Positions 5,863 through 61,019 are shown, numbered from the stretch's first letter. The stretch is DNA of 64,000 nt from an uncultured Candidatus Peribacteria bacterium (GCA_964356355.1 CAYHGX010000001.1:68299-132298); one strand, 5' to 3'. Notes: generated from the sequence alone by a model not told the origin. Made by a program: numbers and translations.

Positions 5863-5864
5863 GG

Positions 5865-28601: not shown

Positions 28602-28678
28602 GCACCCTTAGCTCAACTGGATAGAGCGTTGGTCTTCGGAACCAAAGGTTACAGGTTCGATTCCTGTAGGGTGCACCA
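28602..28678 (+). tRNA. tRNA-Arg (anticodon TCG), CCA encoded
   Basis: A hand-folded cloverleaf works. The acceptor stem is GCACCCT/AGGGTGC and the D arm is GCTC..GAGC. The anticodon stem is TTGGT/ACCAA with loop CT-TCG-GA. The T arm is ACAGG-TTCGATT-CCTGT, with discriminator A plus CCA. Total length is 77 nt. Confidence 0.9.
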
Positions 28679-38800: not shown

Positions 38801-40608
<1,808 letters not shown>

Positions 40609-43593: not shown

Positions 43594-44804
43594 GTGCTGT
43601 GAATATACTTAAAGTATACTAGTAATGCAAGTAAAATTATGATTAGAGAGAGTATCAGCTCTTTGTAAAGTCCAAGGTTTAAAACTGAAACTTGAAAGTT
43701 TTTGGTCACTTCTTCTCCATTGGAATCTTTTATTGTGAGTTTAACCTTGTGTTCTCCTGTTTTTTTGAATGTGTAATTTAGGGCGTTGCCTTCTCTTTGA
43801 ATTTTGTCGTCAATTGTCCAGCTGTAGCTAACTATTTGCCCATCTTCATCAATGGAAGGAGTGGCATCAAAGGTGTAATTTTCAAATACTCCAATTTTAT
43901 CGGTTTCTTTTTTCAGGATGATTTTTGGTGCTTTGTTTATGGGGAAGGGATCTTCTTTGTCTGGAAGGCTGTCATTGTCGTCGTCGATGTCGAGGTTGTT
44001 GCCGATGGAATCATTGTCGGTATCAAGGGTTTCATTTGGATCAAGAGGGAAGGCGTCGTTTTTGTCGTTGGTACCATCTCCATCAGTATCGGCTTTAAGG
44101 GGATCAGTTCCAGAATTTGTTTCATCAATATCGCTAACTTCGTCATTGTCATCATCGGTGTCTGCTATGTTGCCGATGCCATCTTTGTCGGTATCGAGAG
44201 TTTCATTTGCATCTAGAGGCATGTCGTCGAATTTGTCTGGTACGCCGTCTCCATCGTCATCTAGGTCGGCGTTGTCTCCTTTTCCGTCTCCGTCTGTGTC
44301 ATATTGCTCTTTGCTGTTGAGAGGAAAGGCGTCTTTGGTGTCTTCAACTCCATCGCCGTCGTCATCTAGGTCGGCACTATTGGCAATTCCATCATGATCG
44401 GTGTCTTGGATAACGAAGATTTCGCTAACGATCCAATTGTTGGAGGGGTCGTCGATTTCTGGTTGCCATGGAAAAATTTTGACTGCAATTTTGTGGTTTC
44501 CGGCGGTTGGTGTCCAGTCTATAAAGGTGCCATCTGTGTTGCCTTTGTAGATGGAGACTGCTTGGTCACCGCCAATCTGCTTACTGTTGTCGTAAAAACG
44601 AACAACGCCGAGGAGGTCCTTGGTGCTGTTGTTTTTTGTGCTTGAATAGATTCTGATTGGTGAGCCTTCTAGGAACTTATCTGTTGAGAAGGTGATTTTC
44701 TCGCTGTTGATGGAGATGTCTCCGCTAAATGCTGCATAGGCTACTTGTGTAAAAGCGAGTAGAAATGCAGGAATAAGACCTAGTTTTCGTATTTTTATTT
44801 TCAT
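43560..44804 (-). CDS. Secreted, C-terminally anchored surface protein: CARDB-like domain, thrombospondin type-3 Ca-binding repeats, PKD domain
   Basis: The signal peptide reads ..AFTQVAYA. About 8 DxDxDGxxDxxD-type repeats follow ([22 protein letters not shown] and similar). A PKD-like segment ([18 protein letters not shown]) and a C-terminal TM helix complete the protein. Confidence 0.8.
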
Positions 44805-47443
44805 TATGAACTGATTAGTTCTTGTTGGTTTTCTTCAACTTCTGGTACTACATAGCCATCTTCGCCTTCTTCGATAACGTCGATGACGGAGATTCCGGCT
44901 ACTTTATCGGCAGGCTTTAGGCGCATTAGGTAAACACCTTGAGTGGCGCGGCCTTGAGAAGGGATATTCTTTACGTGTAGGCGAATTACTTGTCCTGATT
45001 TTGAGATCATGATGAGATCGGCGTTGGTGTTGGTTTCAATGATTTTGGCGCCAATGATTTTGCCGGTTTTTGTGGTGATGTTTGCGGTCTTAACTCCACT
45101 ACCTCCACGTGATTGGAAGCGGTAATCGGTAACTTTGGTCATCTTTCCGAGACCGTTTTCCATGATTACGAGCAGTTCTGCGGTTTCTGGTGCTTTGATG
45201 GCATCCATTTCCACTACTTCATCGCTGCCTTTGAGGCGGATTCCACGAACTCCAATTGAAGGACGGCCCATTGGGCGGCAATCTTCTTCGTTGAAGCGGA
45301 TGCATTTGCCTTCGCGACTTACTAGGATGATTTCGTCTTTATCTCCAACTTCACGGATCCATTCAAGTGAATCTTCGGGGCGAAGCTTGATGGCGATCAG
45401 TCCGGTTTTTCTTACATTTCCGAAGTCTTCAACTGGGGTTTTTTTGATTGTACCCATCTTTGTGGCCATGAATAGATATTTGCCACTGAATTTTTCGCCT
45501 GTAGAAAGGATGGCAGTAACGTGTTCGTCATCTTGTAGTTGTAGTAGATTTACGATGGCCTGGCCTTTTGCTGTACGGGAGGCCATTGGGATTTCGTATA
45601 CTGGAAGTTTGAAGACGCGTCCTTTATTAGTGAAGTAGAGGAGTTCATCGTGATTTTGAGTTTTCTTGATGAGTTTGATTTCGTCCTCTTCTTTGGTGGT
45701 GCCGCCGATTATGCCTTTTCCTCCGCGGTGTTGGCTGCGGAAGGTGTTGGTTGGAATGCGCTTGATGTAGTTTTCACGGCTGAGCATTACGATTACCGGT
45801 TCGTTTGGAATTGTGTCTTTTTGGGAAATGCTGTTGATAGCATGTGGAACGATTTCGGTTCTGCGCGGATCGGCATATTTTTCTTTCATTTCAGCCATTT
45901 CCTCCTGCATAATTTTGAGAACTTTGTTGACGTCGGCCAGAATTCCTTCTAGGTGCATAATAAGGGCGATTTTTTCTGCTAGTTCATCTTCGATTTTTTT
46001 GCGCTCAAGACCTGCGAGAGTTTGTAGACGCATGTCGAGAATGGCTTTACCTTGAAGCTCTGAGAGTTTGAATTTTTTCATCAGTTGCTCGAGGGCTTCT
46101 TCTTTGTCTGCTGATTTGCGAATAACGGCGATCACTTCATCGATATGATCGAGGGCGATTTTCAGTCCTTCGAGGATGTGGGCCCTGGCTTTAGCCATTT
46201 TTAGCTCGTATTCGGTGCGTCGTGTGATAACTACTTTTCGGTGAGTGATGAAGTGCTCAAGTACCTGTTTAAGGTCTAGTAGATGCGGTTGAATTTCGTC
46301 TACGAGTGCGATCATGTTCATGTTGAACGATGATTGAAGCTGTGTGAATTTGAAAAGTTGGTTGAGGATTTTTTTAGGATAACTATCTTTTTTGAGCTCG
46401 ATCATAATTCTCATACCGTCTTTGTTGGACTCGTCTCTGATATCGGTGATGCCAACTACCTTTTTATCGCGAACTAGTTCGGCAATTTTGGTGATGAGGT
46501 TGGCTTTGTTTACTTGGTAGGGGATTTCGCTAACGATGATTTCGAATTTGCCGTTTTTTCTTTCTCTGATGTCGGTGCGGCCACGAACTACCATGCCGCC
46601 GCGGCCTGTAGTGTAGGCGGTGCGGACGTCATCGATGTTGTAGAGGATGCCTCCAGTTGGGAAATCGGGACCTTTAATGAATTCCATGAGTTCTGGAATT
46701 GTGGCTTCGGGATTTTTTGAGAGGTGAATTAGGCCGTCGATAACCTCTCCAAGATTGTGTGGAGGGATGTTTGTGGCCATACCAACGGCAATACCGGTAG
46801 AACCGTTGAGGAGTAGTTGTGGGAGCTTGGTAGGAAGAACGGTAGGTTCTAGGTGACGGCCATCGTAGTTTTCTCTCCAGCTAACTGTTTCTTTTTCAAT
46901 ATCTGTGAGCATTTCGTCCGTGATTTTTTCCATTTTGGCCTCGGTATAACGCATGGCCGCTGCGCTGTCACCGTCGATGGAACCAAAGTTTCCTTGTCCT
47001 CTTACTAGGGTGTAACGCATGGCGAAATCTTGGGCCATACGAACCATTGAGTCATAAACTGCGGAATCGCCGTGGGGATGATATTTACCCAACACTTCAC
47101 CGACAACGGTGGCGGATTTTCGGAAGGAGGCTGAGGAGCGAAGACCCATTTCATTCATGGCGTGCAGGATTCTGCGGTGAACTGGTTTCATGCCGTCTCT
47201 GACGTCTGGAAGGGCTCTGGACACGATTACGCTCATGGCATATTCGAGGTAGCTGGTTTCCATTTCGTCGGAGATGTTACGTGGGCGGAGGCCTTCGTGA
47301 TTGGTGAAAAGATCGCCTTCGAGGGCGGTTTCAGTGGAGGAGTTTACGGATTCGGAGTTGTCCTCTGATTCTTGGTTTTCTAGATTTTCGTCGTTTTGAT
47401 TTTCCTCTTCTTGATCTTCTGGATTGGTATTTTCGTCTGACAC
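44804..47443 (-). CDS. gyrA: DNA gyrase subunit A with ~45-aa acidic N-terminal extension
   Basis: Motifs are [26 protein letters not shown], the active-site region AAMRYTE and the QRRGG-like GyrA box (SQHRGGKG). C-terminal beta-pinwheel repeats are present. Confidence 0.95.
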
Positions 47444-47515
47444 GGGAAGGTTGGTTAGAAATTTTCTGGGTGGATATTATCATAAAAACTTGGGTTGCGA
47501 AAATGGGGAATGTGG

Positions 47516-47543
47516 TTGACTTTGTGCGCTAATATGGTAAAGT
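47516..47543 (+). promoter_or_regulatory. Putative sigma-70-type promoter of cassette 1
   Basis: TTGACT-N16-TAAAGT is preceded by TGg (extended -10). The same architecture recurs at 48294, and similar architectures recur at 49373 and 59036. Confidence 0.45.
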
Positions 47544-47874
47544 GTGCGTCTGTGATTTTTGAAAAGTGGGCGTTCAAGATTTTAGGGATGAAGGTTTTCG
47601 TGGAAATTTTTTCCCTGAGGGTTTGACTTCGGGTTCGTTTCTTGGCTTGTAGAAGAGCTGTCTGCTGATTTCAGCGGATTGGTGCATTCTCGCTGGATAA
47701 CGATTTTGACAAGAAGGTAATAAGAAGAATTTTTGGGTTTGGTCTGTTTTGCTGGGGGCTAAGAGATTGTTATGGAAATCGTGGAGACGATTTTGTAGCA
47801 GTTTGCTAGACCCCGGCAAATCAACAGCCGGCGGCATGAGCGGGTTAGGAGCCCGCGTTTCGAAGGAGTTTGCC
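47544..47874 (+). repeat. Leader module copy 1 (AT-rich, ~330 nt), paralogous to 48322-48661
   Basis: It is colinear with copy 2 through conserved blocks: TTTAGGGATGAAG, TTTTCCCTG.GGTTTGACT, GTA.AAGAGCT, CGATTTTGACAA.AAGGT.ATA and TTAGACCCCGGCAA.T..ACAGCCGG.GGC. Both copies have a GCGGG..CCCGC hairpin just before the Shine-Dalgarno sequence. Confidence 0.7.
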
Positions 47875-48096
47875 ATGTATGGTAATCGTCTTCCGCTCGC
47901 TGTGCGTGTGATCGATGGGGACCGGGTGGTCCCCACCGATATAGTCGAGGTGCTCGGCCCGGTCCTGGGTGCCGTGGTGGGGGTGGCCATCCGGCCCACG
48001 GAGCGCGGCGAGCAGTCCCAAAAGTGGGTCTGCGGTTACGATCCCACCAAGGCCTGCTCGGTGGGTCCGAGCTGCCGCGCCGCGCGCCGCGGCTGA
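47875..48096 (+). CDS. Small high-GC ORF P1 (73 aa, 3 Cys near C-terminus), unknown function
   Basis: AAGGAG lies 7 nt upstream of the ATG. Third-codon-position G+C is 45/50 by hand count over 47944-48093, against 30/50 at second positions, which is the periodicity expected of a high-GC coding sequence. The peptide is MYGNRLPLAVRVIDGDRVVPTDIVEVLGPVLGAVVGVAIRPTERGEQSQKWVCGYDPTKACSVGPSCRAARRG. I recognise no homologue. Confidence 0.45.
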   Translation: MYGNRLPLAVRVIDGDRVVPTDIVEVLGPVLGAVVGVAIRPTERGEQSQKWVCGYDPTKACSVGPSCRAARRG

Positions 48097-48190
48097 TTTC
48101 CTAGGATCGCTACGATGCCAGGGCCACTCTTCGGCCCATTCGCGGCGCTGTTAACGTTCCTAGGCCAATCCGCACCACCCCGGCCTCTGC

Positions 48191-48256
48191 AGACCAGCCC
48201 CCGGCCGCACTCTCACGAGCGCGCGCCGGGGGCTGGTCTTGCACTTTTTTCTTTTT
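48191..48256 (+). terminator. Rho-independent terminator of cassette 1
   Basis: The 15-bp perfect stem is AGACCAGCCCCCGGC/GCCGGGGGCTGGTCT (48191-48205 and 48225-48239). It is followed by tgcacTTTTTTcTTTTT. Confidence 0.7.
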
Positions 48257-48293
48257 ACCTTCTTGTGTCTTCTAATTTAGTTGGCTTTCACCA

Positions 48294-48321
48294 TTGACTT
48301 TTTCAGTGAATATGCTACAGT
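48294..48321 (+). promoter_or_regulatory. Putative sigma-70-type promoter of cassette 2
   Basis: TTGACT-N16-TACAGT is preceded by TGc (extended -10). It is positionally equivalent to the cassette 1 promoter. Confidence 0.45.
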
Positions 48322-48661
48322 CTTCAGCTTTAGTTATTTGAAATGCAGGAAAATGTTTAGGGATGAAGTTCTTAACGCTTGAGGGCGTAGATAAGAGTTT
48401 TTCCCTGGAGGTTTGACTCTAGGATCGCATCTGGGTTTGTAAAAGAGCTATTGGCTGCTTTGGCGGCTGATCGGTGACTTTTCGCCCCCTTCGCGATTTT
48501 GACAACAAGGTGATAGAAAATTTTTAAATTGGTCTTGGCTGATTGCAGGGGTTTACGAGTTTCTTAGATGATCGTTTTATGGGCGATTTATAAGAGACTG
48601 TTAGACCCCGGCAATTGACAGCCGGAGGCGAGTGCGGGCGTAGGCCCGCGGAGATGTGCAG
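48322..48661 (+). repeat. Leader module copy 2, paralogous to 47544-47874
   Basis: It has the same conserved blocks and hairpins as copy 1, in the same order and with a similar total length. Confidence 0.7.
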
Positions 48662-48850
48662 ATGAAGGTTGCTCTTGTGGACTTCCGTGGTCAGGTGGTC
48701 GCGGTCGTGGAGTTCGTGATGATTCCGATGGGGCTGAGCGAGCCTCTGCGTGAGCGAGAAGGGCGCGATGTGCGGCCCGAGCCGCTGTGCGTGAATCCTC
48801 GTTGCCCGATCCATGGCGCCCGCAGTCAGCGGCCCGACAGCCACAACTGA
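48662..48850 (+). CDS. Small high-GC ORF P2 (62 aa, CxxxxC near C-terminus), unknown function
   Basis: GGAG lies 8 nt upstream of ATG 48662, and an in-frame GTG at 48656 is also possible. GC3 is high by eye. The peptide is MKVALVDFRGQVVAVVEFVMIPMGLSEPLREREGRDVRPEPLCVNPRCPIHGARSQRPDSHN. Confidence 0.45.
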   Translation: MKVALVDFRGQVVAVVEFVMIPMGLSEPLREREGRDVRPEPLCVNPRCPIHGARSQRPDSHN

Positions 48851-48855
48851 TCGTC

Positions 48856-48912
48856 TCGCGCCCGCGGCTTCACAGCCGCGGGCGCGATGAAGTGATCTTC
48901 TTCTTTTCTACT
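48856..48912 (+). terminator. GC-rich hairpin with interrupted T-rich tail after P2 (possibly leaky terminator)
   Basis: The 14-bp stem is TCGCGCCCGCGGCT/AGCCGCGGGCGCGA with a 4-nt loop (48856-48887). The tail is tgaagtgatcTTcTTcTTTTcT. Confidence 0.5.
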
Positions 48913-48972
48913 TCCGTTTCGAAAATCCCGGGGTTTTCTCGGGTGGTGTGCGGTCGGCCGACGACTGCGATC

Positions 48973-49230
48973 ATGGAGTGTGACATGGATTTCCGGAACT
49001 TGGAGCTGATGTTTGGAGCGATGAATGGCTTCGGGCGCGGCATGCTTGCCCATGCGGCGGAGCTCCGTATGGCCCGGGAGCGCGCGCTGGCGCGCGTCCC
49101 CGGCGCGGGCTTCGGGCCGAGTCTGCCGAGCGCGCGCCCGGCCGCCGACCGTCCGGTGCCGCCCTGCAACGCGTGGCAGCTGACCGCCCAGTCCTGGGCC
49201 GGTCAGCGCCACAGCATGAGCTGCCTCTGA
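48973..49230 (+). CDS. Small high-GC ORF P3 (85 aa, 2 Cys in the C-terminal third plus 1 near the N-terminus), unknown function
   Basis: It has a high-GC3 reading frame but no clear Shine-Dalgarno sequence or promoter of its own. It may be read through from cassette 2. An alternative ATG lies at 48985. Confidence 0.35.
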   Translation: MECDMDFRNLELMFGAMNGFGRGMLAHAAELRMARERALARVPGAGFGPSLPSARPAADRPVPPCNAWQLTAQSWAGQRHSMSCL

Positions 49231-49250
49231 GGCGGCTCACCCCGGCCAAA

Positions 49251-49320
49251 GGGGCGGCGGAATGAGGTTCGGGTTTCAAAGCCCCCTCGTCTCCGCCGCC
49301 CCTTAGGCATTTTCTTTTTC
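49251..49320 (+). terminator. Rho-independent terminator after P3
   Basis: The 11-bp outer stem is GGGGCGGCGGA/TCCGCCGCCCC (49251-49261 and 49292-49302) with further inner pairing. It is followed by ttaggcaTTTTcTTTTTc. Confidence 0.6.
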
Positions 49321-49372
49321 TATCACTTTGTTGTTTTCTCTTTTGATGGGTTGTTCTCTTGGTGGCTTGGCC

Positions 49373-49401
49373 TTGTGTTTTGGGCTGTTTTTTGGTAGAA
49401 T
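49373..49401 (+). promoter_or_regulatory. Putative promoter of the VirB4-like gene
   Basis: TTGTGT-N17-TAGAAT is preceded by TGg, about 35 nt upstream of the ATG at 49438. Confidence 0.4.
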
Positions 49402-49437
49402 AATGAGATTTAAAAGACAAAAACAAAGACCAAAACT

Positions 49438-51699
49438 ATGGCTAATGTATTTACAGACGATAAGGCGAAGAGTGATTCTGTGGCCGCTGGGGCTCCGAGT
49501 TGGCTTAAAGATGCCGATGTGATGGTGCCTGGAGCGGGAATTGCTGATGTGGCGCCTGCGGTTGCTCCTTCAAAGGACTATGAGGGTTCTTTGCCTCAGT
49601 TTCACGATGAAAAACCTACCGCAACTCAGTTGGGAGTTGATCCTGCCTCTTGGGTAGTGATTGAAAGTGCTGATAAACAGGCGGCGGAGAAAATGATGGC
49701 TGCGGGTCTTGATCCTAAAACTGGAAGGTTAATGGCGGCTTCGCAGGCTGTTGTTGAGGGAGATGATACTGGAGAAAAAAAGCTAGTAGTTGAGGGAAAC
49801 AAGGATAAAGATGGAGTACTTGGTACTTTGAAAAAATTATTTAGTTTTGGTGTGAAAAGGCCTCAGGTAGAGGGAGTGGCTGGAGCTGCGGTTCCGGTGG
49901 CTACTAAAATTGATCCTTCTGGGAAATTGACGGTTGATGAGAAGAAGAAATTTATGGAGGCTGAGAAAATCTATCAGGAGGGCTTGGCGGCGATTAAAGA
50001 TTTGATTGCGCCGGCTTCCATGGAGATTCAGTATGATAAATTGCGAGTAGATGGCATGTATTGCCAATCATTTTATGTATTTGCTTATCCTCGTTATTTG
50101 GATGCTAACTGGCTCTCTCCGGTGATCAATTTCGACGTAACAATGGATATAAGCCAATTTATCTATCCGATCAACTCGGGAGATATTATGAAGATTCTGC
50201 GCAAGAAAGTTGCACAGATGCAGTCGAGTATGCGTATGAATGCGGAAAAAGGGCATGTGCGTGATCCAGCTATTGAGACGGCTTTGGAAGATGCTGAGTC
50301 TTTGCGAACAGATATTCAGCGCGGACAGGAGAAGTTTTTCCAATTTGCACTCTATTTTACGGTTTACGCTACCAGTGAAAAGAAGCTGGAGAAGGTGGCG
50401 AAGCAGCTTGAGAGCCTTTTGGCAGGTAAATTGGTGCTTACAAAACGTGCGCAGCTACAGGCTGAACATGGTTTTAATTCTTCGATTCCGATTTGTTTGG
50501 ATCAACTTTATACGATTCGAAATATGAATACTGGGCCGCTTTCAAGTACATTTCCGTTTACCTCTTCAGATCTTACCTCTGATAAGGGTATTTTGTATGG
50601 AATTAACCGTCACAATGACAGCTTGATTATATTTGATCGGTTTGCCCTGGAGAATGCTAATAGTGTGGTGTTTGCCAAGTCCGGTGCGGGTAAGTCTTAT
50701 GCCGTGAAGTTGGAGATTTTGCGTCAGATGATGATGGGTACCGACGTGATCGTGATCGATCCGGAAAATGAGTATGAGGCGCTGGCCAATACGGTTGGTG
50801 GCTCTTATTTAAGGCTTAGTTTGAACAGTGATCGTAGAATTAATCCTTTTGATTTGCCGCGGCCGATTGAGGGTGATGATAACAAGCCTGGCGATTTATT
50901 GCGCTCTGGAATTATTAATTTGCATGGTTTGATGAACTTGATGCTGGGTAAGCTTACACCTGAAGAGGAGAGCATCCTGGATCGGGCTTTGATTGATGTG
51001 TATGCGCTAAAAGGCATTACAATGGAGACCGTGGATCCTTCGGTTTTTGAGCCCCCGACGATGGAGGATTTATACCAGATCTTGAGCTCCTTGGAGGGGG
51101 CGACTGGGCTAACTCAAAGGCTTTCTAAATATACTACAGGTTCTTATTCCGGAATTTTCAATAAGCCTACTAATGTGGATCTCTCAACCGGCATGATGGT
51201 GTTCTGTATTCGTGACCTTGAGGACGCACTTCGGCCGATTGCGATGTATATTATTTTGAACTATATCTGGAATAGCGTTCGCAGCGAGCTCAAGAAGAGA
51301 ATTCTGGTTATAGATGAGGCCTGGACGATGATGCAGCATGAGGATAGTGCAAAATTTTTGAACGGACTAGTGAAGAGAGCAAGAAAATATTACCTGGGAG
51401 TGTCAACAATTACTCAGGACGTGGAAGATTTCTTAAAGAGTGAGTATGGTAAGCCAATTATTACCAACTCCTCGATGCAGTTGCTTTTGAAACAGTCGCC
51501 TTCAGCTGTGGAGATGCTGGGGCATATTTTCAATCTTACCGATGGGGAGAAGTATGTGCTCCTTAATAGTGGTGTGGGGCAGGGCCTATTCTTTGCCGGC
51601 CAGAAGCACGTGGCAGTGCAGGTGATTGCCTCATTTACTGAGAATAAAATAGTGACTACGAACCCTGAAGAGGTGATTAAGGCCAGGGAGCAGGCTTAA
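49438..51699 (+). CDS. virB4: VirB4/TrbE/CagE-family type IV secretion-like ATPase
   Basis: Walker A is FAKSGAGKSY and Walker B is ILVIDEAW. The conserved VirB4 context includes FPF...L, NPFD and YYLGVSTITQ. The ~190-aa N-terminal region is Ala/Gly/Val/Lys-rich and has no recognisable domain. Confidence 0.85.
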   Translation: MANVFTDDKAKSDSVAAGAPSWLKDADVMVPGAGIADVAPAVAPSKDYEGSLPQFHDEKPTATQLGVDPASWVVIESADKQAAEKMMAAGLDPKTGRLMAASQAVVEGDDTGEKKLVVEGNKDKDGVLGTLKKLFSFGVKRPQVEGVAGAAVPVATKIDPSGKLTVDEKKKFMEAEKIYQEGLAAIKDLIAPASMEIQYDKLRVDGMYCQSFYVFAYPRYLDANWLSPVINFDVTMDISQFIYPINSGDIMKILRKKVAQMQSSMRMNAEKGHVRDPAIETALEDAESLRTDIQRGQEKFFQFALYFTVYATSEKKLEKVAKQLESLLAGKLVLTKRAQLQAEHGFNSSIPICLDQLYTIRNMNTGPLSSTFPFTSSDLTSDKGILYGINRHNDSLIIFDRFALENANSVVFAKSGAGKSYAVKLEILRQMMMGTDVIVIDPENEYEALANTVGGSYLRLSLNSDRRINPFDLPRPIEGDDNKPGDLLRSGIINLHGLMNLMLGKLTPEEESILDRALIDVYALKGITMETVDPSVFEPPTMEDLYQILSSLEGATGLTQRLSKYTTGSYSGIFNKPTNVDLSTGMMVFCIRDLEDALRPIAMYIILNYIWNSVRSELKKRILVIDEAWTMMQHEDSAKFLNGLVKRARKYYLGVSTITQDVEDFLKSEYGKPIITNSSMQLLLKQSPSAVEMLGHIFNLTDGEKYVLLNSGVGQGLFFAGQKHVAVQVIASFTENKIVTTNPEEVIKAREQA

Positions 51700-51727
51700 G
51701 CCTTTCAGTATTAGCCTTTCTTGCCCC

Positions 51728-51756
51728 TTGTTATTTTCTGGGAATTATTGTATAAT
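51728..51756 (+). promoter_or_regulatory. Putative promoter of the 74-aa ORF
   Basis: TTGTTA-N17-TATAAT (51728-51733 and 51751-51756) lies ~30 nt upstream of ATG 51788. Confidence 0.45.
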
Positions 51757-51787
51757 GTAGTTAAATACATTTTTAACAAAAACAAAA

Positions 51788-52012
51788 ATGAATACAAAAG
51801 TACACAGTTATGCAAATGTGCATCCAATGGTGGTGTTTTGGATCGGCTTGCTAACAGGTGCTATCATCGTTGGTTTATCGTTCTTTTATAGAACACTAGT
51901 ACCGGCTGATTACAATTCTTCACTGTTTAGTTATCCAACTTACAGTACAAACTTGAAGACAAGTCTTAGTCCTACTTATAGTCCAATTTCAATTACTCAG
52001 CCAATGGGCTAA
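51788..52012 (+). CDS. Small single-pass membrane protein, unknown function
   Basis: The 74-aa ORF has one hydrophobic helix (VVFWIGLLTGAIIVGLSFFY) and a Ser/Thr/Tyr/Pro-rich tail. A consensus-like promoter lies upstream. Confidence 0.45.
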   Translation: MNTKVHSYANVHPMVVFWIGLLTGAIIVGLSFFYRTLVPADYNSSLFSYPTYSTNLKTSLSPTYSPISITQPMG

Positions 52013-52037
52013 AGGTGTGGATTAAATTGTATCGTAG

Positions 52038-52070
52038 AAGAGTGAGTAGTTAAGGCTATTCACTCTTTTT
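52038..52070. terminator. Hairpin between convergent genes (possible bidirectional terminator)
   Basis: The 8-bp stem is AAGAGTGA/TCACTCTT with a 14-nt loop, followed by TTT. It overlaps the stop codon of the minus-strand 1490-aa gene. Confidence 0.45.
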
Positions 52071-55000
52071 ATGCTGGGAAGTGACGTGAGCTGATTGTAG
52101 CTGTCAACATTGCTTCGAGTTCATCCGGGTCTGCCAATTTTTTTAATTTAGCCTTGAGTATATTTCTCTTAACTGTTTTTCCGTTTTCTGTGGTTTCTGC
52201 TTCTATTAGTCTATCAAATTCTGTGGCTATTTCTGCCCGTTTTTCCCTGAATAATTCAATTAATGAGCGGAATCCTTCGAATTTTCTTTCAACTTGGCCG
52301 GAGTTGTCTACATGTCTAAAGTTTTCATCTTGAATTCTGGTGATTCCACGTGTAATTGATATGTTTGTTAGGGCGGGGAAGCTTGTCAGATAGTATCCAG
52401 GTTTTTCTGAGTCTTTTAATTCGGGGATTAGAGTACCTTGGAGATCCTGATCTGTAATATTTAGTGTTTCGATGAATTCCAAGATCATGGCAATGCTTGG
52501 TAGGATATAGTAGCTGAATTCACCTGAAGGGTCTTTGGTAAAGTATCCTTCCATCTTAGGGGTGTTGAAATAGGCGAAATCTTCCAGGGCATCTTTTAGG
52601 TATGGTATCATTTCATCTTTGATACGCTTAAATTCTTTAGCTCTATTTGGATTTGCGCTGGCTGTAATTAGCTCCTGATTGTAGGTTTGCACAAGTAGGC
52701 TTACTGCTCTAATTCTTCCAAAATGTAAAAGTAGATGGTATTTATCGTTTGGGTCTACGTTTTTAATAAGTGGAAAGCCTTCTTCATTGCAGGTAGTGAT
52801 TGCTTGTGAAATTTTTTGTCTATTGAAAGCATTTGTAGGTAGTGGTTCTGTTTCTGCGGTATTTGTTTCGTCGGGATATTTTGTTTTGCTGGTTGCCATC
52901 ATTAAAAGTGCTAACATTTTTTGGTAGGCAAAGCGTGCAGCTTGGCGCGATAGTCCAATCTGATTGCTAATTCTCCAGTTTTCGCCGTAGCCTATTGCAG
53001 CTCTTTCATATTCTCCGCAATAGTCGTAGGTTTGGGCCAATAATTCCAGGAATGCTACGTCATCGATGGGGTCGAAAATTAGTGGATTGGTTTCTCGGGC
53101 TTGTCTTATTGCATCTAATTCGTGACGTAAATTAATGAGAATTTTAGTTTCTTTTTGATTGAATAATGAGGGATCTACGGCGCCATCATCATCTATACTT
53201 TGGCGGGTTTTTGGTTTACGAACAGTGCATTCGAATAGATATCTTTGATATAGCAATTTAATTTTGGCGTAGGTTTTTGGATCTGATTTGGCTATTTCCT
53301 GTATTTCAGGTTTTTCTAGCGAATATTTTTGAAGCCATCCTTCAAGGGCGGCTACGATATTTGATATGTTACTTACTTCATCTCCGTGATCGCAGGCTCG
53401 AGCCTCATGTTGCATTTCAATTGTGAGTAGGTCTCCAGGGGTGTAATTTCCACGACTATCTTGGATTTTTTTGAAATATGAGTTCATCTTGACTCTTTTT
53501 TCTGCGTTTCGAATTTGAGATTCTTCCATTGAGGCCATGCGGAAGCCCATTTTGTAGGCTTCTAAAAGTTTTGGGTTTTCTGGATCTTGGGTATTGGTGC
53601 AGATTGCTTCCAATGTGTCGATTGCAGCGTGGACTCTTGCGAATTGACCGAGATTGGCTCCGCTTTCGATGTAGGTGAGGAGTGCGGATTTGATCAATAT
53701 AATCATTTCTTCGGTGGTGGACTGTTCTTCTTCTGATTTTCCTGAAAGTACGATGGGGTGCTCTTGTAGTTCTTGGATTAATTTTGCAGCTGCGGTTTTG
53801 GCTTTTGGATCTAGATTGCAAAGAATGGCTGAGGCGTGTGCTAATCCTTTGGCATATTGTCTGCCTTCGTGGTCTTTTTCTAGTACGGTAGTTGCTTTTC
53901 TTGTGTAGGCAGCCCAAACTTTGCGGTGAGCTTTGTTTCTGAGGGTTGAGGTTTCGGTTGCGGCTTGGAGCCAGCTGAATTTTACTTCATCTGGAACATT
54001 TGAGTCGGCCGATATTCTGCCATAGTGTTTGAAAACTAGTTTCTGTTTTTCTTGAGGAGGGATTGAGTCCTTGATGGCTTCGCCAATTGTTTCATTTGAA
54101 AGTTCATAGGCTGTGGTGATGCCATTGTTATCTACGATTTTAGTGAGGTAGTCTTGTTTTATTAGTAGATCTATTATTGCAATGGCCTCTCCGCCGATTT
54201 TTCCTGTTTCTTCGGCAGTGATCTCGAGTAATCTTCTTACGGTAAATGGGGTGCCGGTCATGGCAACTAATCGAAGAATAGAGAGGATTTTTGGTTCAAG
54301 TTTTATGATTCTGTTTCTTTCATGTTGGATTAGATCTTCTTGGTTGTTGATTTTTTGAAGTTCCTCGAGTGCTGCGTTGGTAAGTCCAATTTCATTTTCT
54401 CCGTAGGTGAGAAACTTATCTGGATTTCTTAAGAGAATGTTTATTAAGCTGGTGAATCCCCATGGAGTTTGGATTTTATTTGCTAGCATTAGGTGCCAAT
54501 CGTTGGTAAAGGTTTTTCTTTCGCCGGTTGTGCTATTTAGACACTTTTCTTCTGGAAGTGAGTAGAAAACGTAGTCTGCGGCAGTTTGTGGATCTTGTAA
54601 ATTGAGTTTTGGCGTGCCGGTTTTTTCATCTTGGAGCCAAATTGTTTTGACAGCTTTGGGACCAAAGGAAGATCCAAGATTGGCTTCCATGGCGGTTTGT
54701 TTTGTAGATTTAAATCTATCTTCTGGCCTCATGGTGGCAATGATGCGGCATTGGGTTTCTCTTAGTACTGTTTCCATGATTTTCATGATGTGTTCATCGG
54801 AGTGGGCGTCGATGTGGTGCATATCATCTAGGACGATGGGGAAAGAACCAAAAATTTGTTCAAATGCACTGATGGCACCGATGATCTTTGATACTAATTC
54901 ATGAGGTTTTGTTTGTGCTAAGTGTAGTCTTTCTCCGGGAGAAAGGCTGCATATTTGCTGTAGCGGAGCGAGCAGTGCTTTATATTGATCTGCTTTTGCA

Positions 55001-56541
55001 AGGTCCTTTATTTTACTTTTTGCAAAGGCATCGAGCTGTTCAATAATATTGATCAGGGCCATGCCGGGGAGCTTCTCGCAGGCTGGGTCGATGCTAAGGA
55101 TCATCGCGCCTGGGTTCTCTTTCATTAGTTCATCCAAAATACGTGATTTTCCGATACCGGCTTTACCTTTTATTATGGTTAGTTTCGTTCTGCTTTTTGG
55201 GCCAGTTCCTTCTCTTAATTCTTCTAAAACATCCTGTTGTCCGATGAGTTTTCTAGGGCCTCCACCTACTCTAAGAGTGGCTTCTCTGACAACGTCTAGA
55301 ATGCGGTAGTATTTTGTGCCGGGTATTTTTTCTACTTTTAATTGTGAAGTAGTGTTTTCGCGGCTCCTTAGTTGTTTTTCATAGGTTTCTTCATCGATAA
55401 TATAGTCGGCCTTGTTTTCTCCTTCACCTAGCTTTGACCATTGGATAAGCTCTTGTGTGGAGAGGTAGTCGTTCATTTTCAATCCTTCTTCGGATTGAGA
55501 AAGCGTTCCTTTTCCAAAGCGGAGATGGGCTTTCCCTTGAGTTTTTTTGCGTATACCTAGTCCAAAATTTTCCAAAAAACCGCTGGCGCGTTCTTGTAGT
55601 GCGATGATTACAATGTTGTCCATGCTATCTTTTTTGACAATAAAGCCATCAGAGCGGGAAATTGCCGCGATATCATTTAGGATGTGGACGATATGGGGGA
55701 AGCCAAAATTGCTACCTTGAAGGATTATATGTGGATTGATCACTAAGTAACTGACGCTGCCAGTGGCATTGGTTTCTTTTTCGTTGGGCTTTTTTTCTTC
55801 TTCTTTTAGTGAGTTGATTGTTCTTGTTGATGTGTTTAGGTCTGGTCCAAATTTTTTGGCAGTGGTTGGAAGGAATCCATCTAATGAATAACTTGTGACT
55901 GGGTCATTGTCTCTGGTGCCAATTGTTAAAGATTGTCTGTGGGCAGCCACTTTTCCAGGTTTTGGTACGTCTAGTGTCTCTCTGTAAAGTGTTGGGTTGC
56001 AAGCAATAAATGTGGAGCCGATTCTTAATACTAAGTGCCCTTTGGGATCAATAGTAGTAGTTACTTTTGATTCAATATTAAGATCGGTTAGAGCCTGGTA
56101 AACAAGTAATGCATTTATGTGGCTTGGGATGAGTTCTTGAATAGTGACGATGTCGTCCTGGTCGTTCATTATGGCGCCGTGATCCGTGTTTAGGCTTAAT
56201 CCAAGCCTGTTCAGGGCGGTTTGAACTACGGGAAGGTTTTCTCTTTTGAAACTGATGCGCATTATTTGATATTGCTCTGGAGTAATACTTAATGAATGAG
56301 GATCATGAAGGTGGCAGATAGCGAGAGGTTGAAGGTGTGGAGAGAGTTTTTGCACCTCTTCAGCTAAAATCATCGATCCCTCTGTTAATTGAGTGGAAAT
56401 TTCAGAGACTATTGTTGTTTTAAAAGGATCAACATCTGGTTTGCTGTAGAGATCTGGTCCCTTTGTATTGATAGGGGCGAACTCAAGATCTCTTCTTGTT
56501 GGTATGGCAATTGGGCTAATTCTTGAATCTGGGCTGGCCAT
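52069..56541 (-). CDS. Large STAND/AAA_16-like P-loop NTPase with unassigned ~440-aa N-terminal region and long helical-repeat C-terminus
   Basis: The protein is 1490 aa. Walker A is IIKGKAGIGKSRILDEL and Walker B-like is FPIVLDDMHHID. About 800 aa of helix-rich, TPR-like sequence follows. I recognise no motif in the N-terminal 440 aa. Confidence 0.75.
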   Translation of the reverse strand: MASPDSRISPIAIPTRRDLEFAPINTKGPDLYSKPDVDPFKTTIVSEISTQLTEGSMILAEEVQKLSPHLQPLAICHLHDPHSLSITPEQYQIMRISFKRENLPVVQTALNRLGLSLNTDHGAIMNDQDDIVTIQELIPSHINALLVYQALTDLNIESKVTTTIDPKGHLVLRIGSTFIACNPTLYRETLDVPKPGKVAAHRQSLTIGTRDNDPVTSYSLDGFLPTTAKKFGPDLNTSTRTINSLKEEEKKPNEKETNATGSVSYLVINPHIILQGSNFGFPHIVHILNDIAAISRSDGFIVKKDSMDNIVIIALQERASGFLENFGLGIRKKTQGKAHLRFGKGTLSQSEEGLKMNDYLSTQELIQWSKLGEGENKADYIIDEETYEKQLRSRENTTSQLKVEKIPGTKYYRILDVVREATLRVGGGPRKLIGQQDVLEELREGTGPKSRTKLTIIKGKAGIGKSRILDELMKENPGAMILSIDPACEKLPGMALINIIEQLDAFAKSKIKDLAKADQYKALLAPLQQICSLSPGERLHLAQTKPHELVSKIIGAISAFEQIFGSFPIVLDDMHHIDAHSDEHIMKIMETVLRETQCRIIATMRPEDRFKSTKQTAMEANLGSSFGPKAVKTIWLQDEKTGTPKLNLQDPQTAADYVFYSLPEEKCLNSTTGERKTFTNDWHLMLANKIQTPWGFTSLINILLRNPDKFLTYGENEIGLTNAALEELQKINNQEDLIQHERNRIIKLEPKILSILRLVAMTGTPFTVRRLLEITAEETGKIGGEAIAIIDLLIKQDYLTKIVDNNGITTAYELSNETIGEAIKDSIPPQEKQKLVFKHYGRISADSNVPDEVKFSWLQAATETSTLRNKAHRKVWAAYTRKATTVLEKDHEGRQYAKGLAHASAILCNLDPKAKTAAAKLIQELQEHPIVLSGKSEEEQSTTEEMIILIKSALLTYIESGANLGQFARVHAAIDTLEAICTNTQDPENPKLLEAYKMGFRMASMEESQIRNAEKRVKMNSYFKKIQDSRGNYTPGDLLTIEMQHEARACDHGDEVSNISNIVAALEGWLQKYSLEKPEIQEIAKSDPKTYAKIKLLYQRYLFECTVRKPKTRQSIDDDGAVDPSLFNQKETKILINLRHELDAIRQARETNPLIFDPIDDVAFLELLAQTYDYCGEYERAAIGYGENWRISNQIGLSRQAARFAYQKMLALLMMATSKTKYPDETNTAETEPLPTNAFNRQKISQAITTCNEEGFPLIKNVDPNDKYHLLLHFGRIRAVSLLVQTYNQELITASANPNRAKEFKRIKDEMIPYLKDALEDFAYFNTPKMEGYFTKDPSGEFSYYILPSIAMILEFIETLNITDQDLQGTLIPELKDSEKPGYYLTSFPALTNISITRGITRIQDENFRHVDNSGQVERKFEGFRSLIELFREKRAEIATEFDRLIEAETTENGKTVKRNILKAKLKKLADPDELEAMLTATISSRHFPA

Positions 56542-56651
56542 AGGGCTGGTTTATTTTTAAGGGGTTATCCTAACATTTTTGAGGAAATAGGCAAGTGGAA
56601 TTGAAAAAGTGGTGGTTTTGTGTTATAATTTGAAGATTAATTTGATCTTAA

Positions 56652-59027
56652 ATGAGTGATCTTGGTAGGCAAAATTTGGCGGCGCGGATCTTTAAAGGGG
56701 TGATTTTCGCCTTGATTTCTTTTGGAATGGTGGGTGGAAATTTTTTGATAGAGGGAAAGGCTTATCAGGAGGCGCCAAAAACTGAGGGAAAGCTGGTTGC
56801 TTTTGATTATGGGAAGGATAATTTAATTGGAGAAGATGGAATTATCAGATTTGATACTGAGGTGCCAAAGCCGGATATGCAGGTGGTAAAGGCTGAAAAT
56901 GGATATGTTTTTAATTTGAAAAATGGTCATTTTTGGGGAAATTTTAGGCTGAGCGATGATGGTGTTGCAATTGTCTCCGACAGAGTGGTTGTTGTACCTG
57001 ATCATGCTGTTTTTGATGCTTCTTTCGTGAGTGGCAAATTGGAGCTGGCTGTGTATTCCGGCGATGTTTATTTGGGATTTTTGCCTGAGGGGGTTGATGT
57101 GAAAGAGCAGGTCGATGCTTATAGTGGGGTGTTTATGAATCGTTTATTGGTGGCTCAGGGGAACAAAGTTACAGTAACGATGTCTAAGGTTACTGATCAA
57201 ATTAGGCCGCTTTTGTATTCTAAGTTGGTGAAGGAGTTTAAATATATTCAGATTTCTGCTGAGCAGCGTCAAGGGCCTTGGGTGTTGAAGAATCTGGCTT
57301 TTGATACACAGAATCGAGAAAATCGAAAGCATCAATTTGAGTCAGAGGTGATTTTGCGTGGTTCGAGTGCCAGTGAGGGGTTTGTGGCGAGTATTTTGCA
57401 ATGGACACAGGCTAATCTTACTTTTATTCCCGATAAGCGTCAGAAAATTCAGTTGAGAAGGCTCTTTGCTTATTTGGAGGATGCCATCTATTATGCGAAG
57501 TCGGGAGATTTGGAGCAAACAAAGCAATATCTTAATGATTTTGACGTTTATATTACTGATGTGGAGTTTACCTCTGGTGAGGAAAATGGGTTTCATCATT
57601 ATTTTGAGGAATATGTGAAGGGTTTGAATGTTTTTGAGCCTGGTGATGCCTATTATGAGGTTGAGAAATTTTTATTAAATAAACAGTTTTTTTCTAAGGA
57701 TCAGCAGGGGCTGGTGGTTGCGGCTTTTTGGCAGGATGTGTATGAGGCGATTGGGAAAAATGAGGTAGCTGCTCGTGAGTCGTTGGACAATTATTACAAC
57801 TATTTGGATAAGTATTTAGTTATTTTAGAAGGTGGCGATCAGGCCTATTATCAAAATTATTTAGCTTATCAGAATCAGCTTTTTGATAATTTGTTGTTAA
57901 AATATCCGGTCTTTTATCAAGATTCGTATTTTGCGATTAAAGATGCTTTAGAAATGCGTTATTTGGCTTTGTTCCAGGGCCATGACAAGGAGGAGATGAG
58001 TCAGGATTTTATCAGTGAAAAGATTGATTTCCTTAGAAGGGTGAAGAAATTTTTCTTTGATGGGTCAATTCAGATCGTTGATGCGAAAAAGGTATTTTCA
58101 AGGCTGATTGCTGAGATTGACGCCTTGATGCCTAAAGATAAGGGTGAGGTGGCAGTAATTGCGCTTTTTGAGTCTCGACTTAAGGATATTGCTGATTTCT
58201 GGGGGTATTTAAGTAGTCCTCAGTACCAAACAAAGGCGAGTGGAGTGACAGAGGAGGATAGATATAATACCTATTTAAAGGAAAAGGATAAGATTTGGAG
58301 TTTTGTGAATATTCGGGAGGATGTGTTGGGTGAAAAAATTCAGAAATCAATGACAGTTGCGGATGTGAAGGACGAGGTGATAAAGCAATTGATGATTTCC
58401 CAGGGGGTTTCGAGCGTTGAGGTTGGGGAGATTAAGGACGCTGGAGATAGGTATATTGATGTAAACTTAGTGATTAGTGGTTATCCGGTGAAGGCGGTGT
58501 ATGATCGCGTGACTACTTTAGTGAAGGAGGTAACGGCTTATGATAAGGATATTTCTAAGGGTAGTGTGAAGGTGGAGGCCTTGTTGGCTGTGTTGCAGGA
58601 TAAATTTGCGGATTTGGCTAAAGATAGTTTGGCAGCCAAGGATGAAGGGGTTTCAATTGAGAGTACAGCGCAGAGGTATGCGCGGGTGTATATTGCGAAG
58701 GTGCTTGCTGATGAGGGATTTGTGGTTGAAATGAAAAATGTGAGTTTGGTGGATGAGGAAAAGGCCATTTATCGGGTACAGGAAATTACTTTATTGGCTA
58801 ATGAGGCGATGGTGGTAACCTTTGATTTGGATATGAAGGGCGAGGTTGTGACTAATCTTTTTGTGATGAATAAGGGCGAGCCGCAGCTAATTGATGGTGC
58901 TTTTACGTTGGCCGAGCTAAAGGCTTTTATTCAGGCTGATGGCAAGATTGATAAGGGAGAGCCGTTGGTAGATGGTGGTGCGGCGAATCCAAGTGGGCCT
59001 AGTGCTGGTGGAAAGGTGTCGAGGTAA
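56652..59027 (+). CDS. Membrane-anchored hypothetical protein (791 aa)
   Basis: After an N-terminal TM helix (VIFALISFGMVGGNFLI) comes a beta-rich segment faintly FecR-like (GYVFNLKNGHFWGNF...VVVVPDHAVFDASF..GKLELAVYSGDVYLG). A long helical region and a Gly/Ala/Pro tail complete the protein. Confidence 0.6.
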   Translation: MSDLGRQNLAARIFKGVIFALISFGMVGGNFLIEGKAYQEAPKTEGKLVAFDYGKDNLIGEDGIIRFDTEVPKPDMQVVKAENGYVFNLKNGHFWGNFRLSDDGVAIVSDRVVVVPDHAVFDASFVSGKLELAVYSGDVYLGFLPEGVDVKEQVDAYSGVFMNRLLVAQGNKVTVTMSKVTDQIRPLLYSKLVKEFKYIQISAEQRQGPWVLKNLAFDTQNRENRKHQFESEVILRGSSASEGFVASILQWTQANLTFIPDKRQKIQLRRLFAYLEDAIYYAKSGDLEQTKQYLNDFDVYITDVEFTSGEENGFHHYFEEYVKGLNVFEPGDAYYEVEKFLLNKQFFSKDQQGLVVAAFWQDVYEAIGKNEVAARESLDNYYNYLDKYLVILEGGDQAYYQNYLAYQNQLFDNLLLKYPVFYQDSYFAIKDALEMRYLALFQGHDKEEMSQDFISEKIDFLRRVKKFFFDGSIQIVDAKKVFSRLIAEIDALMPKDKGEVAVIALFESRLKDIADFWGYLSSPQYQTKASGVTEEDRYNTYLKEKDKIWSFVNIREDVLGEKIQKSMTVADVKDEVIKQLMISQGVSSVEVGEIKDAGDRYIDVNLVISGYPVKAVYDRVTTLVKEVTAYDKDISKGSVKVEALLAVLQDKFADLAKDSLAAKDEGVSIESTAQRYARVYIAKVLADEGFVVEMKNVSLVDEEKAIYRVQEITLLANEAMVVTFDLDMKGEVVTNLFVMNKGEPQLIDGAFTLAELKAFIQADGKIDKGEPLVDGGAANPSGPSAGGKVSR

Positions 59028-59035
59028 ATTTTCTC

Positions 59036-59064
59036 CTGACAAGTTTTTTCCTTTATGGTAGAGT
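59036..59064 (+). promoter_or_regulatory. Putative gyrB promoter
   Basis: CTGACA-N17-TAGAGT is preceded by TGg (extended -10), about 30 nt upstream of ATG 59097. Confidence 0.45.
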
Positions 59065-59078
59065 TCTGCCGCTTTTAA

Positions 59079-61019
<1,941 letters not shown>

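Follow-up and report, generated by a model that had tools for sequence, protein, structure and literature searches.

At the type IV secretion system (T4SS) loci of Patescibacteria, virB4 is known to have arrays of small, strongly diverged VirB2-like genes beside it, and epibiotic growth requires the T4SS (PMC12102498, PMC12857230, PMC10633639). Here we describe a locus, which we file as a variant of such T4SS-adjacent variable small-protein loci, in a 64,000-nucleotide stretch of DNA from an uncultured Candidatus Peribacteria bacterium (GCA_964356355.1 CAYHGX010000001.1:68299-132298; hereafter the window). It occupies the 1,994 bp that separate gyrA (44804-47443, minus strand) from virB4 (49438-51699, plus strand), a spacer made up of two tandem transcription units with native leaders and GC-rich payloads encoding three small open reading frames (ORFs), P1, P2 and P3. 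Like the described pilin arrays, the locus places several small, unrelated-looking and fast-evolving genes beside a virB4 of the CD1110 type: P1-P3 lie 200-1560 bp upstream of virB4, are co-directional with it and are mutually unrelated, which is the tandem small-gene arrangement of those arrays, and the payload ORF of a sister species (contig L011) is predicted to have two Gly-rich hydrophobic helices. Unlike the genes of pilin arrays, P1-P3 show no VirB2 or T4SS_pilin profile match, two-helix pattern or signal peptide, and no foreign GC content and codon usage, long structured leaders or helix closing 5′ and 3′ ends has been described for pilin arrays. A conserved leader with a unit-specific 5′-3′ closing helix, combined with such payload composition, has not been described previously.

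Two tandem units with matching leaders and pair-specific repeats

Aligning the two halves of the spacer resolves it into units at ~47516-48266 and ~48294-49334 with the same order of parts: a promoter-like site, leader part A, a 5′ arm (a1), leader part B, a Shine-Dalgarno (SD) site, the ORF or ORFs, a GC hairpin and a T-rich 3′ arm (a2). The features are as follows, with z denoting folding z-scores.

47516..47543, +, promoter-like site of unit 1 (TTGACT, 16 nt, TGgTAAAGT)
47550..47708, +, leader part A of unit 1, in which two hairpin domains are conserved, among them the block TTTTTCCCTGAGGGTTTGACT
47709..47729, +, a1 arm of unit 1, purine-rich and SD-like (ACAAGAAGGTAATAAGAAGAA), 21 nt, 90% complementary to 48246-48266
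47730..47874, +, leader part B of unit 1, one long hairpin plus two GC hairpins that are short (block TAGACCCCGGC..ACAGCCGG), z = -4.4
47875..48096, +, P1, 73 aa, hydrophobic GxxxGxxxG segment at residues 23-39, C-terminal tail with 3 Cys, stop TGA
48097..48239, +, 3′ untranslated region (UTR) of P1, with the palindrome CCTAGG present twice and a GC hairpin whose 15-bp stem is perfect (48191-48239), z = -6.8
48246..48266, +, a2 arm of unit 1, T-rich tail, complement of its own a1
48294..48321, +, promoter-like site of unit 2 (TTGACT, 16 nt, TGcTACAGT)
48328..48501, +, leader part A of unit 2, z = -3.1
48502..48520, +, a1 arm of unit 2, ACAACAAGGTGATAGAAAA, including the SD-like AAGGTGAT, 19 nt, 95% complementary to 49316-49334
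48521..48661, +, leader part B of unit 2, z = -8.5
48662..48850, +, P2, 62 aa, 2 Cys (LCVNPRCPIHG), stop TGA
48856..48920, +, 3′ hairpin of P2, a 14-bp perfect GC stem (48856-48887) followed by a T-rich stretch, z = -4.3
48985..49230, +, P3, 81 aa, helical N-terminal part, Pro-rich linker and Cys-bracketed C-terminal loop, stop TGA; alternative start at 48973
49245..49308, +, 3′ hairpin of P3, a 17-bp GC stem followed directly by ATTTTCTTTTT, terminator-like, z = -5.7
49316..49334, +, a2 arm of unit 2, TTTTCTATCACTTTGTTGT; relatives have ATCACCTTG, which is anti-SD-like
49438..51699, +, virB4, a VirB4/TraC-like T4SS ATPase (Pfam P-loop_TraG, AAA_10, DUF87, TraC_F_IV), directly downstream and co-directional

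The promoter-like sites of unit 1, unit 2 and the L011 locus fall at one aligned position; those of the two units are sigma-70-like with an extended -10 element (TGnTAnAGT), a type that recurs in similar form (TGgTAgAAT) in the promoter region of virB4. Downstream of them the 5′ leaders have native GC content, extend over ~320 nt and are ~75% identical between the units. The consensus fold of leader part A contains 5 pairs that are altered on both sides among three sequences, and that of leader part B contains 6 such pairs between units 1 and 2 (two sequences). When the DNA was scanned against Rfam, only a tRNA-Arg at 28602 passed its gathering score, the region 47400-49500 holding sub-threshold chance matches only. 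Each leader also holds a short upstream ORF beginning at ATGAAG (47585-47626 and 48361-48417, encoding MKVFVEIFSLRV and MKFLTLEGVDKSFSLEV before the stop) and running into GGTTTGA, a block that is conserved; the frame (MK[VF]...) was rejected as probably not being conserved as coding sequence, since a 2-nt deletion in L011 (111-140) cuts it to 9 codons.

The arms are predicted to pair within their own unit. Across the whole spacer the best partner of each a1 is its own a2, the cognate duplexes reaching -25.2 (unit 1) and -27.2 kcal/mol (unit 2) against -14.4 kcal/mol for unit 1 a1 with unit 2 a2 and -15.5 kcal/mol for unit 2 a1 with unit 1 a2. The a1/a2 pairs of the two units differ at several positions, with the changes matched on both arms, and the closing helix, which encloses 516 bp in unit 1 and 795 bp in unit 2, is present in both whole-unit minimum-free-energy folds (z = -8.45 for unit 1). 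In the window a1 sits 130-150 nt 5′ of the ribosome-binding sites of P1 and P2 and does not cover them. L011 and a further relative, L012, conserve the a2 arm of unit 2, which lies immediately before the virB4 promoter. Behind the P2 hairpin, the T-rich sequence resembles a degenerate a2, and P3 may accordingly be the remnant of a third unit. Miniature inverted-repeat transposable elements, transposon terminal repeats and integration att sites were considered for a1/a2 and rejected, as the repeats are inverted, pair-specific and contained within a larger duplicated unit.

An earlier, sequence-only reading of the window had described a single ~1.5-kb GC-rich block with three plus-strand ORFs, each followed by a strong hairpin and a T-rich tail. 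The ORFs are present as described and the hairpins are real (48191-48239, 15 bp; 48856-48887, 14 bp; 49245-49308, 17 bp, each then T-rich). The sharp compositional jump is likewise borne out: GC content climbs twice, over 47.8-48.25 kb and over 48.6-49.3 kb, from ~0.40-0.48 to 0.64-0.75, with no other comparable island in the window or in ~30 kb of further DNA of this genome. The block is not single, however, since its two GC-rich stretches are parted by 350 bp of native composition (48250-48600, GC 0.35-0.47) that form the leader of unit 2, and the account in terms of three ORFs had missed the paralogous leaders with their promoters and the inverted repeats 47709-47729/48246-48266 and 48502-48520/49316-49334. 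The same reading had allowed for an assembly chimera. The spacer and both composition boundaries are spanned in four independent assemblies at 99.1-99.4% identity (Logan SRR24858484, ENA ERZ4201065, Logan ERR3856788 and Logan ERR3856789), and because the whole spacer recurs in all four, a chimeric join is ruled out. The next-highest GC peak of the window, 0.57 at 39501-40000, lies inside tgt and stays well short of the payloads.

Coding evidence and foreign composition of the payloads

All three ORFs show codon periodicity, with base-by-codon-position chi-square values of p = 0.0016 (P1), 0.00013 (P2) and 0.0015 (P3), while the 3′ UTR of P1, taken as a control, shows none (p = 0.43). GC content at the first, second and third codon positions is 0.73/0.54/0.78 in P1 and 0.75/0.44/0.73 in P2, and third-position GC (GC3) is 0.86-0.88 in P3; the periodicity reported earlier for P1 thus holds, at a whole-ORF GC3 of 0.78 and not the 0.90 then estimated. 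SD sites precede P1 (GAAGGAG, 47862-47868) and P2 (GGAG, 48650-48653), as had been noted, and P3 has one too: the frame first given as 48973-49230 exists, but its more likely start is the ATG at 48985, with GGAG 6 nt upstream. P1 is called as a gene in independent assemblies. Folding z-scores of the coding sequences are ordinary (P1 -2.5, P2 +1.2, P3 -1.4), the excess structure lying in the untranslated parts. At payload composition, chance alone would leave a frame of 73 codons open in ~20% of cases, and the lengths of P1-P3 are therefore no evidence by themselves, because such frames are common at this GC content.

For P3 a protein-level comparison is available. Its last 17-22 residues resemble the end of the L011 ORF (Smith-Waterman score 56 versus 28 ± 4.4 for shuffled sequences, with 0/500 shuffles reaching 56), and the shared residues are written in different codons (GGT/GGC, CGC/CGT, AGC/TCC). 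We conclude from these sequence features that P3 is translated and that P1 and P2 very probably are too. The motif common to P3 and the L011 ORF is C-x2-W-x6-W-x-G-x-RHS, which in P3 is the scaffold of a Cys-bracketed loop of 20 residues. Hydropathy analysis gives one hydrophobic segment in P1, a marginal one in P2 and none in P3; P3 is predicted to be soluble. The idea that P1 and P2 are diverged paralogues was rejected, their similarity not exceeding that of shuffled sequences, in keeping with the earlier remark that the three peptides do not resemble one another.

The payloads differ from 40 native genes of the window in their codon statistics. Mean GC3 is 0.44 in the native genes (the highest being 0.66) and 0.73-0.86 in P1-P3; A occupies on average 0.27 of native third positions and 0.01-0.03 of those in P1-P3 (P1 3%, P2 3%, P3 1%); and where native genes end in TAA (25), TAG (8) or TGA (7), P1-P3 end in TGA in 3/3 cases. 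The window as a whole has an extreme strand asymmetry of the same sign whatever the gene orientation (G 0.279 versus C 0.153, T 0.33 versus A 0.238); its cumulative GC skew climbs monotonically over positions 1-64000, and the G/C skew vanishes only in the high-GC payloads.

Searches for relatives of P1-P3 returned almost nothing. The concatenation of P1, P2 and P3 matched only the window's own ORF among 5.8 billion proteins, and a full phmmer run with P3 over 1.84 billion representatives gave P3 itself and three repeat proteins (P0248, P0249 and P0250). The latter were rejected as relatives, since their scores sum 5-53 copies of a spurious ~8-bit match: they are giant repeat proteins of up to 5084 aa with as many as 53 repeats of ...AGYDPAKPSSKPVVCRLRPCEAFKQ..., each repeat weakly matching residues 41-76 of P3. 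They resemble translated satellite DNA, GYDPTK also occurs in P1, and we take the match as chance. Payload proteins had no match in Pfam, NCBIfam, PADLOC or PDB sequence searches, and blastn and tblastn against phage and plasmid collections gave no payload match. The payloads are best read as foreign gene material of high-GC type that has been repeatedly replaced at this site, a view drawn from composition and the comparison of relatives. The earlier suggestion of a recent high-GC donor stands as far as composition goes, but neither a donor nor a homologue appeared among the 5.8 billion proteins, the phages or the plasmids.

Variation among strains and relatives

Between the window and the near-identical strains L002, L003 and L005, compared over 4.8-14.7 kb, 12-13 positions are different, and all of these lie inside P1-P3. 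Most are confined to one short patch:

49169..49206, +, hypervariable patch of P3, 11 nucleotide differences in 38 bp, NAWQLTAQSWAGQ versus TEWQVSSQAWGGY

The two alleles read PPC-NAWQLTAQSWAGQ-RHSMSCL and PPC-TEWQVSSQAWGGY-RHSMSCL, with 8 non-synonymous codons and 1 synonymous codon changed and the Cys, Trp, Gln, Trp, Gly, Arg-His-Ser scaffold unchanged. The other differences are 48807 C>T in P2 (Pro to Leu) and, in L002 only, a synonymous 48090 C>T in P1. The covered part of gyrA, the whole of virB4, the genes for a 1490-aa and a 791-aa protein and, in L002, gyrB are identical among these strains. L001, which is 0.74% diverged over 20 kb, carries the window's P3 allele, so that the allele is decoupled from strain relatedness; rooting with L001 places the origin of the second allele, apparently a single event, in a lineage that is otherwise the same as the window. 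The comparison of the patch covers two alleles and one distant relative. As the P3 loop changes without a compensating change in the 12-15 kb of flank, its partner is probably external or encoded far away. Contig L004 (run ERR3856787) starts at 49207, one base past the patch, which would fit coexisting alleles breaking the assembly. L001 further has, at 9.7 kb in its own contig (window position 48098), a 3-nt TGG insertion just 3′ of the P1 stop, and T>C changes at 48186 and 48188 beside the P1 hairpin.

Beyond the strain level, relatives with VirB4 72-76% identical keep the gyrA-virB4 order and lack the array: the gap measures 161-221 bp, with one exception of 513 bp that holds a 74-aa ORF of normal GC content. 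These short gaps indicate that the 2-kb array is an insertion in one narrow lineage. In L015 (VirB4 73% identical) a 74-aa normal-GC ORF (5639-5863, plus strand) occupies the gyrA-virB4 gap with its own promoter-like site and hairpin, and the gap may be a general landing place for small genes.

L011 (VirB4 86% identical) retains the platform with a different payload. Its leader is 88% identical to that of unit 2 over 235 nt, up to a1, and is followed by a distinct ORF of 176 aa and 65% GC with two predicted Gly-rich hydrophobic helices (AlphaFold pLDDT 42) and a P3-like C-terminus, then by a GC hairpin, a matching a2 and the conserved virB4 promoter. Here a1 (AAGGTGAT) stands 6 nt before the payload ATG and is the SD of that ORF, while a2 (ATCACCTTG) resembles the anti-SD end of 16S rRNA, and the 3′ element would thus mask the ribosome-binding site. 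The contig start of L012 (VirB4 89% identical) shows the hairpin, a2 and promoter only. With another high-GC payload present at this site in a sister species, one recent transfer is insufficient to explain the locus. An exact-pattern scan with the most conserved leader block gave 5 matches in GTDB genomes and 12 in JGI metagenomes, all of which are due to chance, lying in unrelated taxa and lacking any other leader feature, and the second leader block gave 0 matches in JGI metagenomes; the element family would accordingly be either very narrow or fast-diverging. A GyrA homologue search for further members of the lineage found none closer than 78% identity.

The surroundings are those of a core chromosome, comprising tpiA, a murein ligase gene, dnaG, rpoD, greA, pyrG, trpS, priA, an RND pump, secDF, ruvABC, pyk, glmS, tgt, aroC and gyrB (Pfam), and the genes of the window are intact under the standard genetic code. 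The closest homologues of its virB4 carry the names VirB4-like, CD1110 family, and come from Peregrinibacteria and Gracilibacteria. Together with those of the closest GyrA homologues, these names place the bacterium in the Peregrinibacteria/Gracilibacteria of the candidate phyla radiation (CPR). Between gyrA and gyrB (44804-61019) lie T4SS-related genes, namely virB4, a 74-aa membrane ORF, a 1490-aa AAA_16 protein (minus strand) and a 791-aa protein without a Pfam match, and this bracketing is kept in relatives with VirB4 72-89% identical. The 74-aa ORF (51788-52012, plus strand), directly 3′ of virB4, has a strong hydrophobic helix at residues ~14-33 and a Ser/Thr/Tyr/Pro-rich tail, without a family match; the position directly after virB4 also holds a small ORF of 70-74 aa in L011 and L012, and in distant relatives an ORF of 72-101 aa with a protease gene in between. 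Downstream of gyrB and near the T4SS genes, a 370-aa protein (61077-62189, plus strand) has an NAD-glycohydrolase translocation F5/8 type C domain (PF25302), a domain found in secreted toxin-delivery proteins.

Readings of the locus and its significance

Tentatively, and with doubt slightly outweighing confidence, we read the locus as encoding T4SS-linked, rapidly diversifying small proteins that are expressed from panhandle mRNAs and were inserted between gyrA and virB4 in one lineage. The promoter of each unit would give rise to an mRNA headed by a long structured 5′ UTR, and the a2 tail could then pair with a1 of its own leader, closing the read-through or full-length transcript into a panhandle. 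Such a helix might serve mRNA stability, RNase III-type processing or, as the L011 geometry suggests, the control of ribosome access, and read-through of unit 2 could couple the units to virB4 expression. The products would be small exported, surface or membrane proteins under diversifying selection, acting with the adjacent T4SS on a host, prey or competitor. The P3 patch might be rewritten from a template, either by short-tract gene conversion from an unseen pool of alleles or by a diversity-generating retroelement (DGR) acting in trans, and the high GC content in two species could reflect repeated replacement from a high-GC pool, selection at the nucleic-acid level or biased gene conversion.

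Several observations weigh against this proposal. The link to the T4SS is one of adjacency and orientation only. Neither P1-P3, the L011 ORF nor the neighbouring small ORFs matched TrbC/VirB2 (PF04956) or T4SS_pilin (PF18895), or any other Pfam profile, up to E = 1 or up to E = 10, P1-P3 show neither a signal peptide nor a two-helix pilin-like pattern, and AlphaFold models of P1 and the L011 ORF are uninformative (predicted local distance difference test, pLDDT, 44 and 42). For P1 and P2, translation is argued from periodicity and SD sites with no comparator sequence. The covariation evidence for the leaders is thin, coming from three or four related sequences. Because a2 of unit 2 lies downstream of a canonical terminator, pairing of a1 with a2 as RNA requires read-through, and the inverted repeats may instead have a role at the DNA level. 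Finally, simple horizontal transfer does not explain how high GC content persists in two species, and no donor was found.

Of the other explanations, the one in which P3 is the variable region of a DGR, with reverse transcriptase (RT) and template repeat elsewhere in the genome, is unlikely, although the pattern of the patch fits it. It invokes adenine-specific mutagenic retrohoming, with the downstream hairpin aiding recognition. DGRs (general reference PMC8144416) are known to be enriched in CPR bacteria. The P3 patch resembles their variable regions in its position and form, with many simultaneous substitutions on an invariant scaffold: 11 fall in 38 bp at the C-terminal end of the ORF while kilobases of flank are unchanged, which looks like one step; a strong hairpin stands 39 bp downstream; the scaffold residues Cys, Trp, Gly and Arg are encoded without A; and the patch has 3 invariant A's, while its 22 variable bases include another 3, figures that random replacement at adenines of a template would allow. 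However, no RVT domain occurs in the window's 40 large ORFs or in the genes called in the adjoining 10 kb on each side, neither allele of 49150-49230 has a second copy in the window, L001, L011, L012 or L028-L030, ~100 kb of this genome shows no RT and no template-like copy of the patch or its flanks, and the window plus 10 kb each side holds no silent donor copy. The patch is also far shorter than usual variable regions, P3 with its 81 aa is too small for the C-type lectin fold usual in DGR targets, and the variable sites between the two known alleles include third codon positions. We consider it improbable that the payloads are instead functionless captured high-GC DNA in decay, their clustered differences arising from relaxed constraint and recombination. 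Under that view the foreign composition and codon usage, the lost strand skew and the orphan status of P1-P3 would follow directly, as would the extra differences in P1 and P2, both C>T on the plus strand along the genome's own bias, as for drift toward host composition. The hairpins without an adjacent U tract would fit too, such terminators being typical of high-GC bacteria. Yet the placement of the payloads is precise, with native promoters, leaders and SD sites, all conserved, ahead of them and a conserved a2 behind; L011 keeps the platform with another high-GC payload and shares the P3 motif as protein; 8 non-synonymous to 1 synonymous change on a fixed scaffold points to selection or targeting; and 2 kb of junk at 99.3% in four samples would be unlikely in a small, streamlined CPR genome.

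The leader/3′-end helix raises the comparison with type I toxin-antitoxin loci, in which membrane-active peptides would be made from stable mRNAs silenced by a hok-like a1/a2 fold-back and an antisense RNA antidote; we regard this, too, as improbable. As in the hok/sok and AapA1/IsoA1 mRNAs, a small ORF stands in a structured mRNA, with a long structured 5′ UTR, whose 3′ element pairs with a 5′ element (in L011 with the SD itself, which the helix covers), P1 has a hydrophobic GxxxGxxxG segment, two Gly-rich hydrophobic helices are predicted in the L011 ORF, and, as is common among type I loci, the units form a tandem duplication. No defining trait of type I loci was shown to be missing here, the long-range pairing being present and hydrophobicity being seen in P1, marginal in P2 and absent from P3. 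In the window, however, the pairing leaves the ribosome-binding sites of P1 and P2 uncovered (a1 lying 130-150 nt upstream of them), and no conserved antisense promoter is seen, the minus-strand promoter-like matches occupying non-equivalent positions in units 1 and 2. Toxins are usually alike between copies, whereas the P1-P3 ORFs are unrelated, not conserved and only partly hydrophobic (P2 marginally, P3 not at all), and the foreign GC content and the hypervariable patch would be left unexplained. That the GC-rich parts are structured non-coding RNAs with incidental reading frames, as the sequence-only reading had entertained, is very improbable. In AT-rich genomes a GC island is often the sign of a structured RNA, unit 1 as a whole has a folding z-score of -8.45, and the ~20% chance expectation for open frames of payload length leaves room for such an account. 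The untranslated parts are strongly structured (z -4 to -8.5), so that RNA structure has a share in the locus, but the coding parts do not support the reading: ORF z-scores of -2.5, +1.2 and -1.4 confine the excess structure to the UTRs, codon-position bias is strong in 3/3 ORFs and missing in the UTR control, the P3 motif is conserved as protein, and no Rfam family matches. An even more remote reading would make a1/a2 the ends of invertible DNA segments, a phase-variable switch setting either payload strand behind the leader promoter. Inverted repeats of 19-21 bp do flank segments of 516 and 795 bp just past the promoter, and gene conversion during inversion could maintain the matching within pairs; only one orientation is seen in the window and the L001, L002, L003 and L005 assemblies, though, the window encodes no invertase or recombinase beyond RuvABC-type proteins, codon periodicity and SD sites favour plus-strand frames only, and the repeats differ between units, which is unexpected for sites of one enzyme.

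Other known systems share single traits with the locus. Peptide-pheromone precursors are encoded upstream of Gram-positive conjugation and T4SS operons, as with prgQ of pCF10, and in RRNPP-type systems the mature peptide is C-terminal and pherotypes are strain-specific. P1-P3 are likewise small, have strong terminators and precede MPF-FATA-type T4SS genes in the same orientation, and the variable part of P3 is C-terminal with an allele decoupled from strain phylogeny; unlike in such systems, no co-varying receptor gene lies within 12-15 kb, and P3 is longer and not recognisable as a secreted precursor. Integron cassettes, too, are small orphan ORFs of deviating GC content with hairpin ends, exchanged at one chromosomal site, whereas each unit here has its own promoter and leader and its flanking repeats are inverted and pair-specific; the perfect GC stems lack GTTRRRY attC cores and the window holds no integrase. 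Retrons share the a1/a2 inverted repeats, but the part enclosed here measures 0.5-0.8 kb and is coding, and no RT gene is adjacent in the window. A relation to ribosomally synthesized and post-translationally modified peptides (RiPPs), suggested in the sequence-only reading, keeps one point in its favour: the hypervariable, Cys-bracketed C-terminus of P3 fits the idea, its alleles differing in the C-terminal loop only (two alleles and one distant relative). On the other side, Pfam finds no maturation enzyme, protease or transporter in the 64-kb window, only housekeeping genes, and no RiPP precursor family (NHLP, Nif11, lanthipeptide or others) matches in Pfam or NCBIfam.

Members of the CPR/Patescibacteria depend on other cells, and the T4SS with its small variable ‘pilin’ genes is essential in one species tested genetically. 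We also entertain, as decidedly unlikely, that the locus is a platform for expressing and delivering genes that follow the codon usage of a high-GC partner organism through the adjacent, essential T4SS, with payloads swapped at the a1/a2-bounded site and the P3 loop rewritten by targeting. GC3, stop codons and terminators would then be kept host-like since the products or the nucleic acid work in or on a high-GC host cell, and the locus would stand as a bacterial analogue of T-DNA or effector cassettes. Returning to the reading that we prefer, in which the locus encodes T4SS-linked diversifying small proteins, P1-P3, if they are specificity determinants or effectors, would offer a testable handle on the evolution of host range in CPR bacteria.

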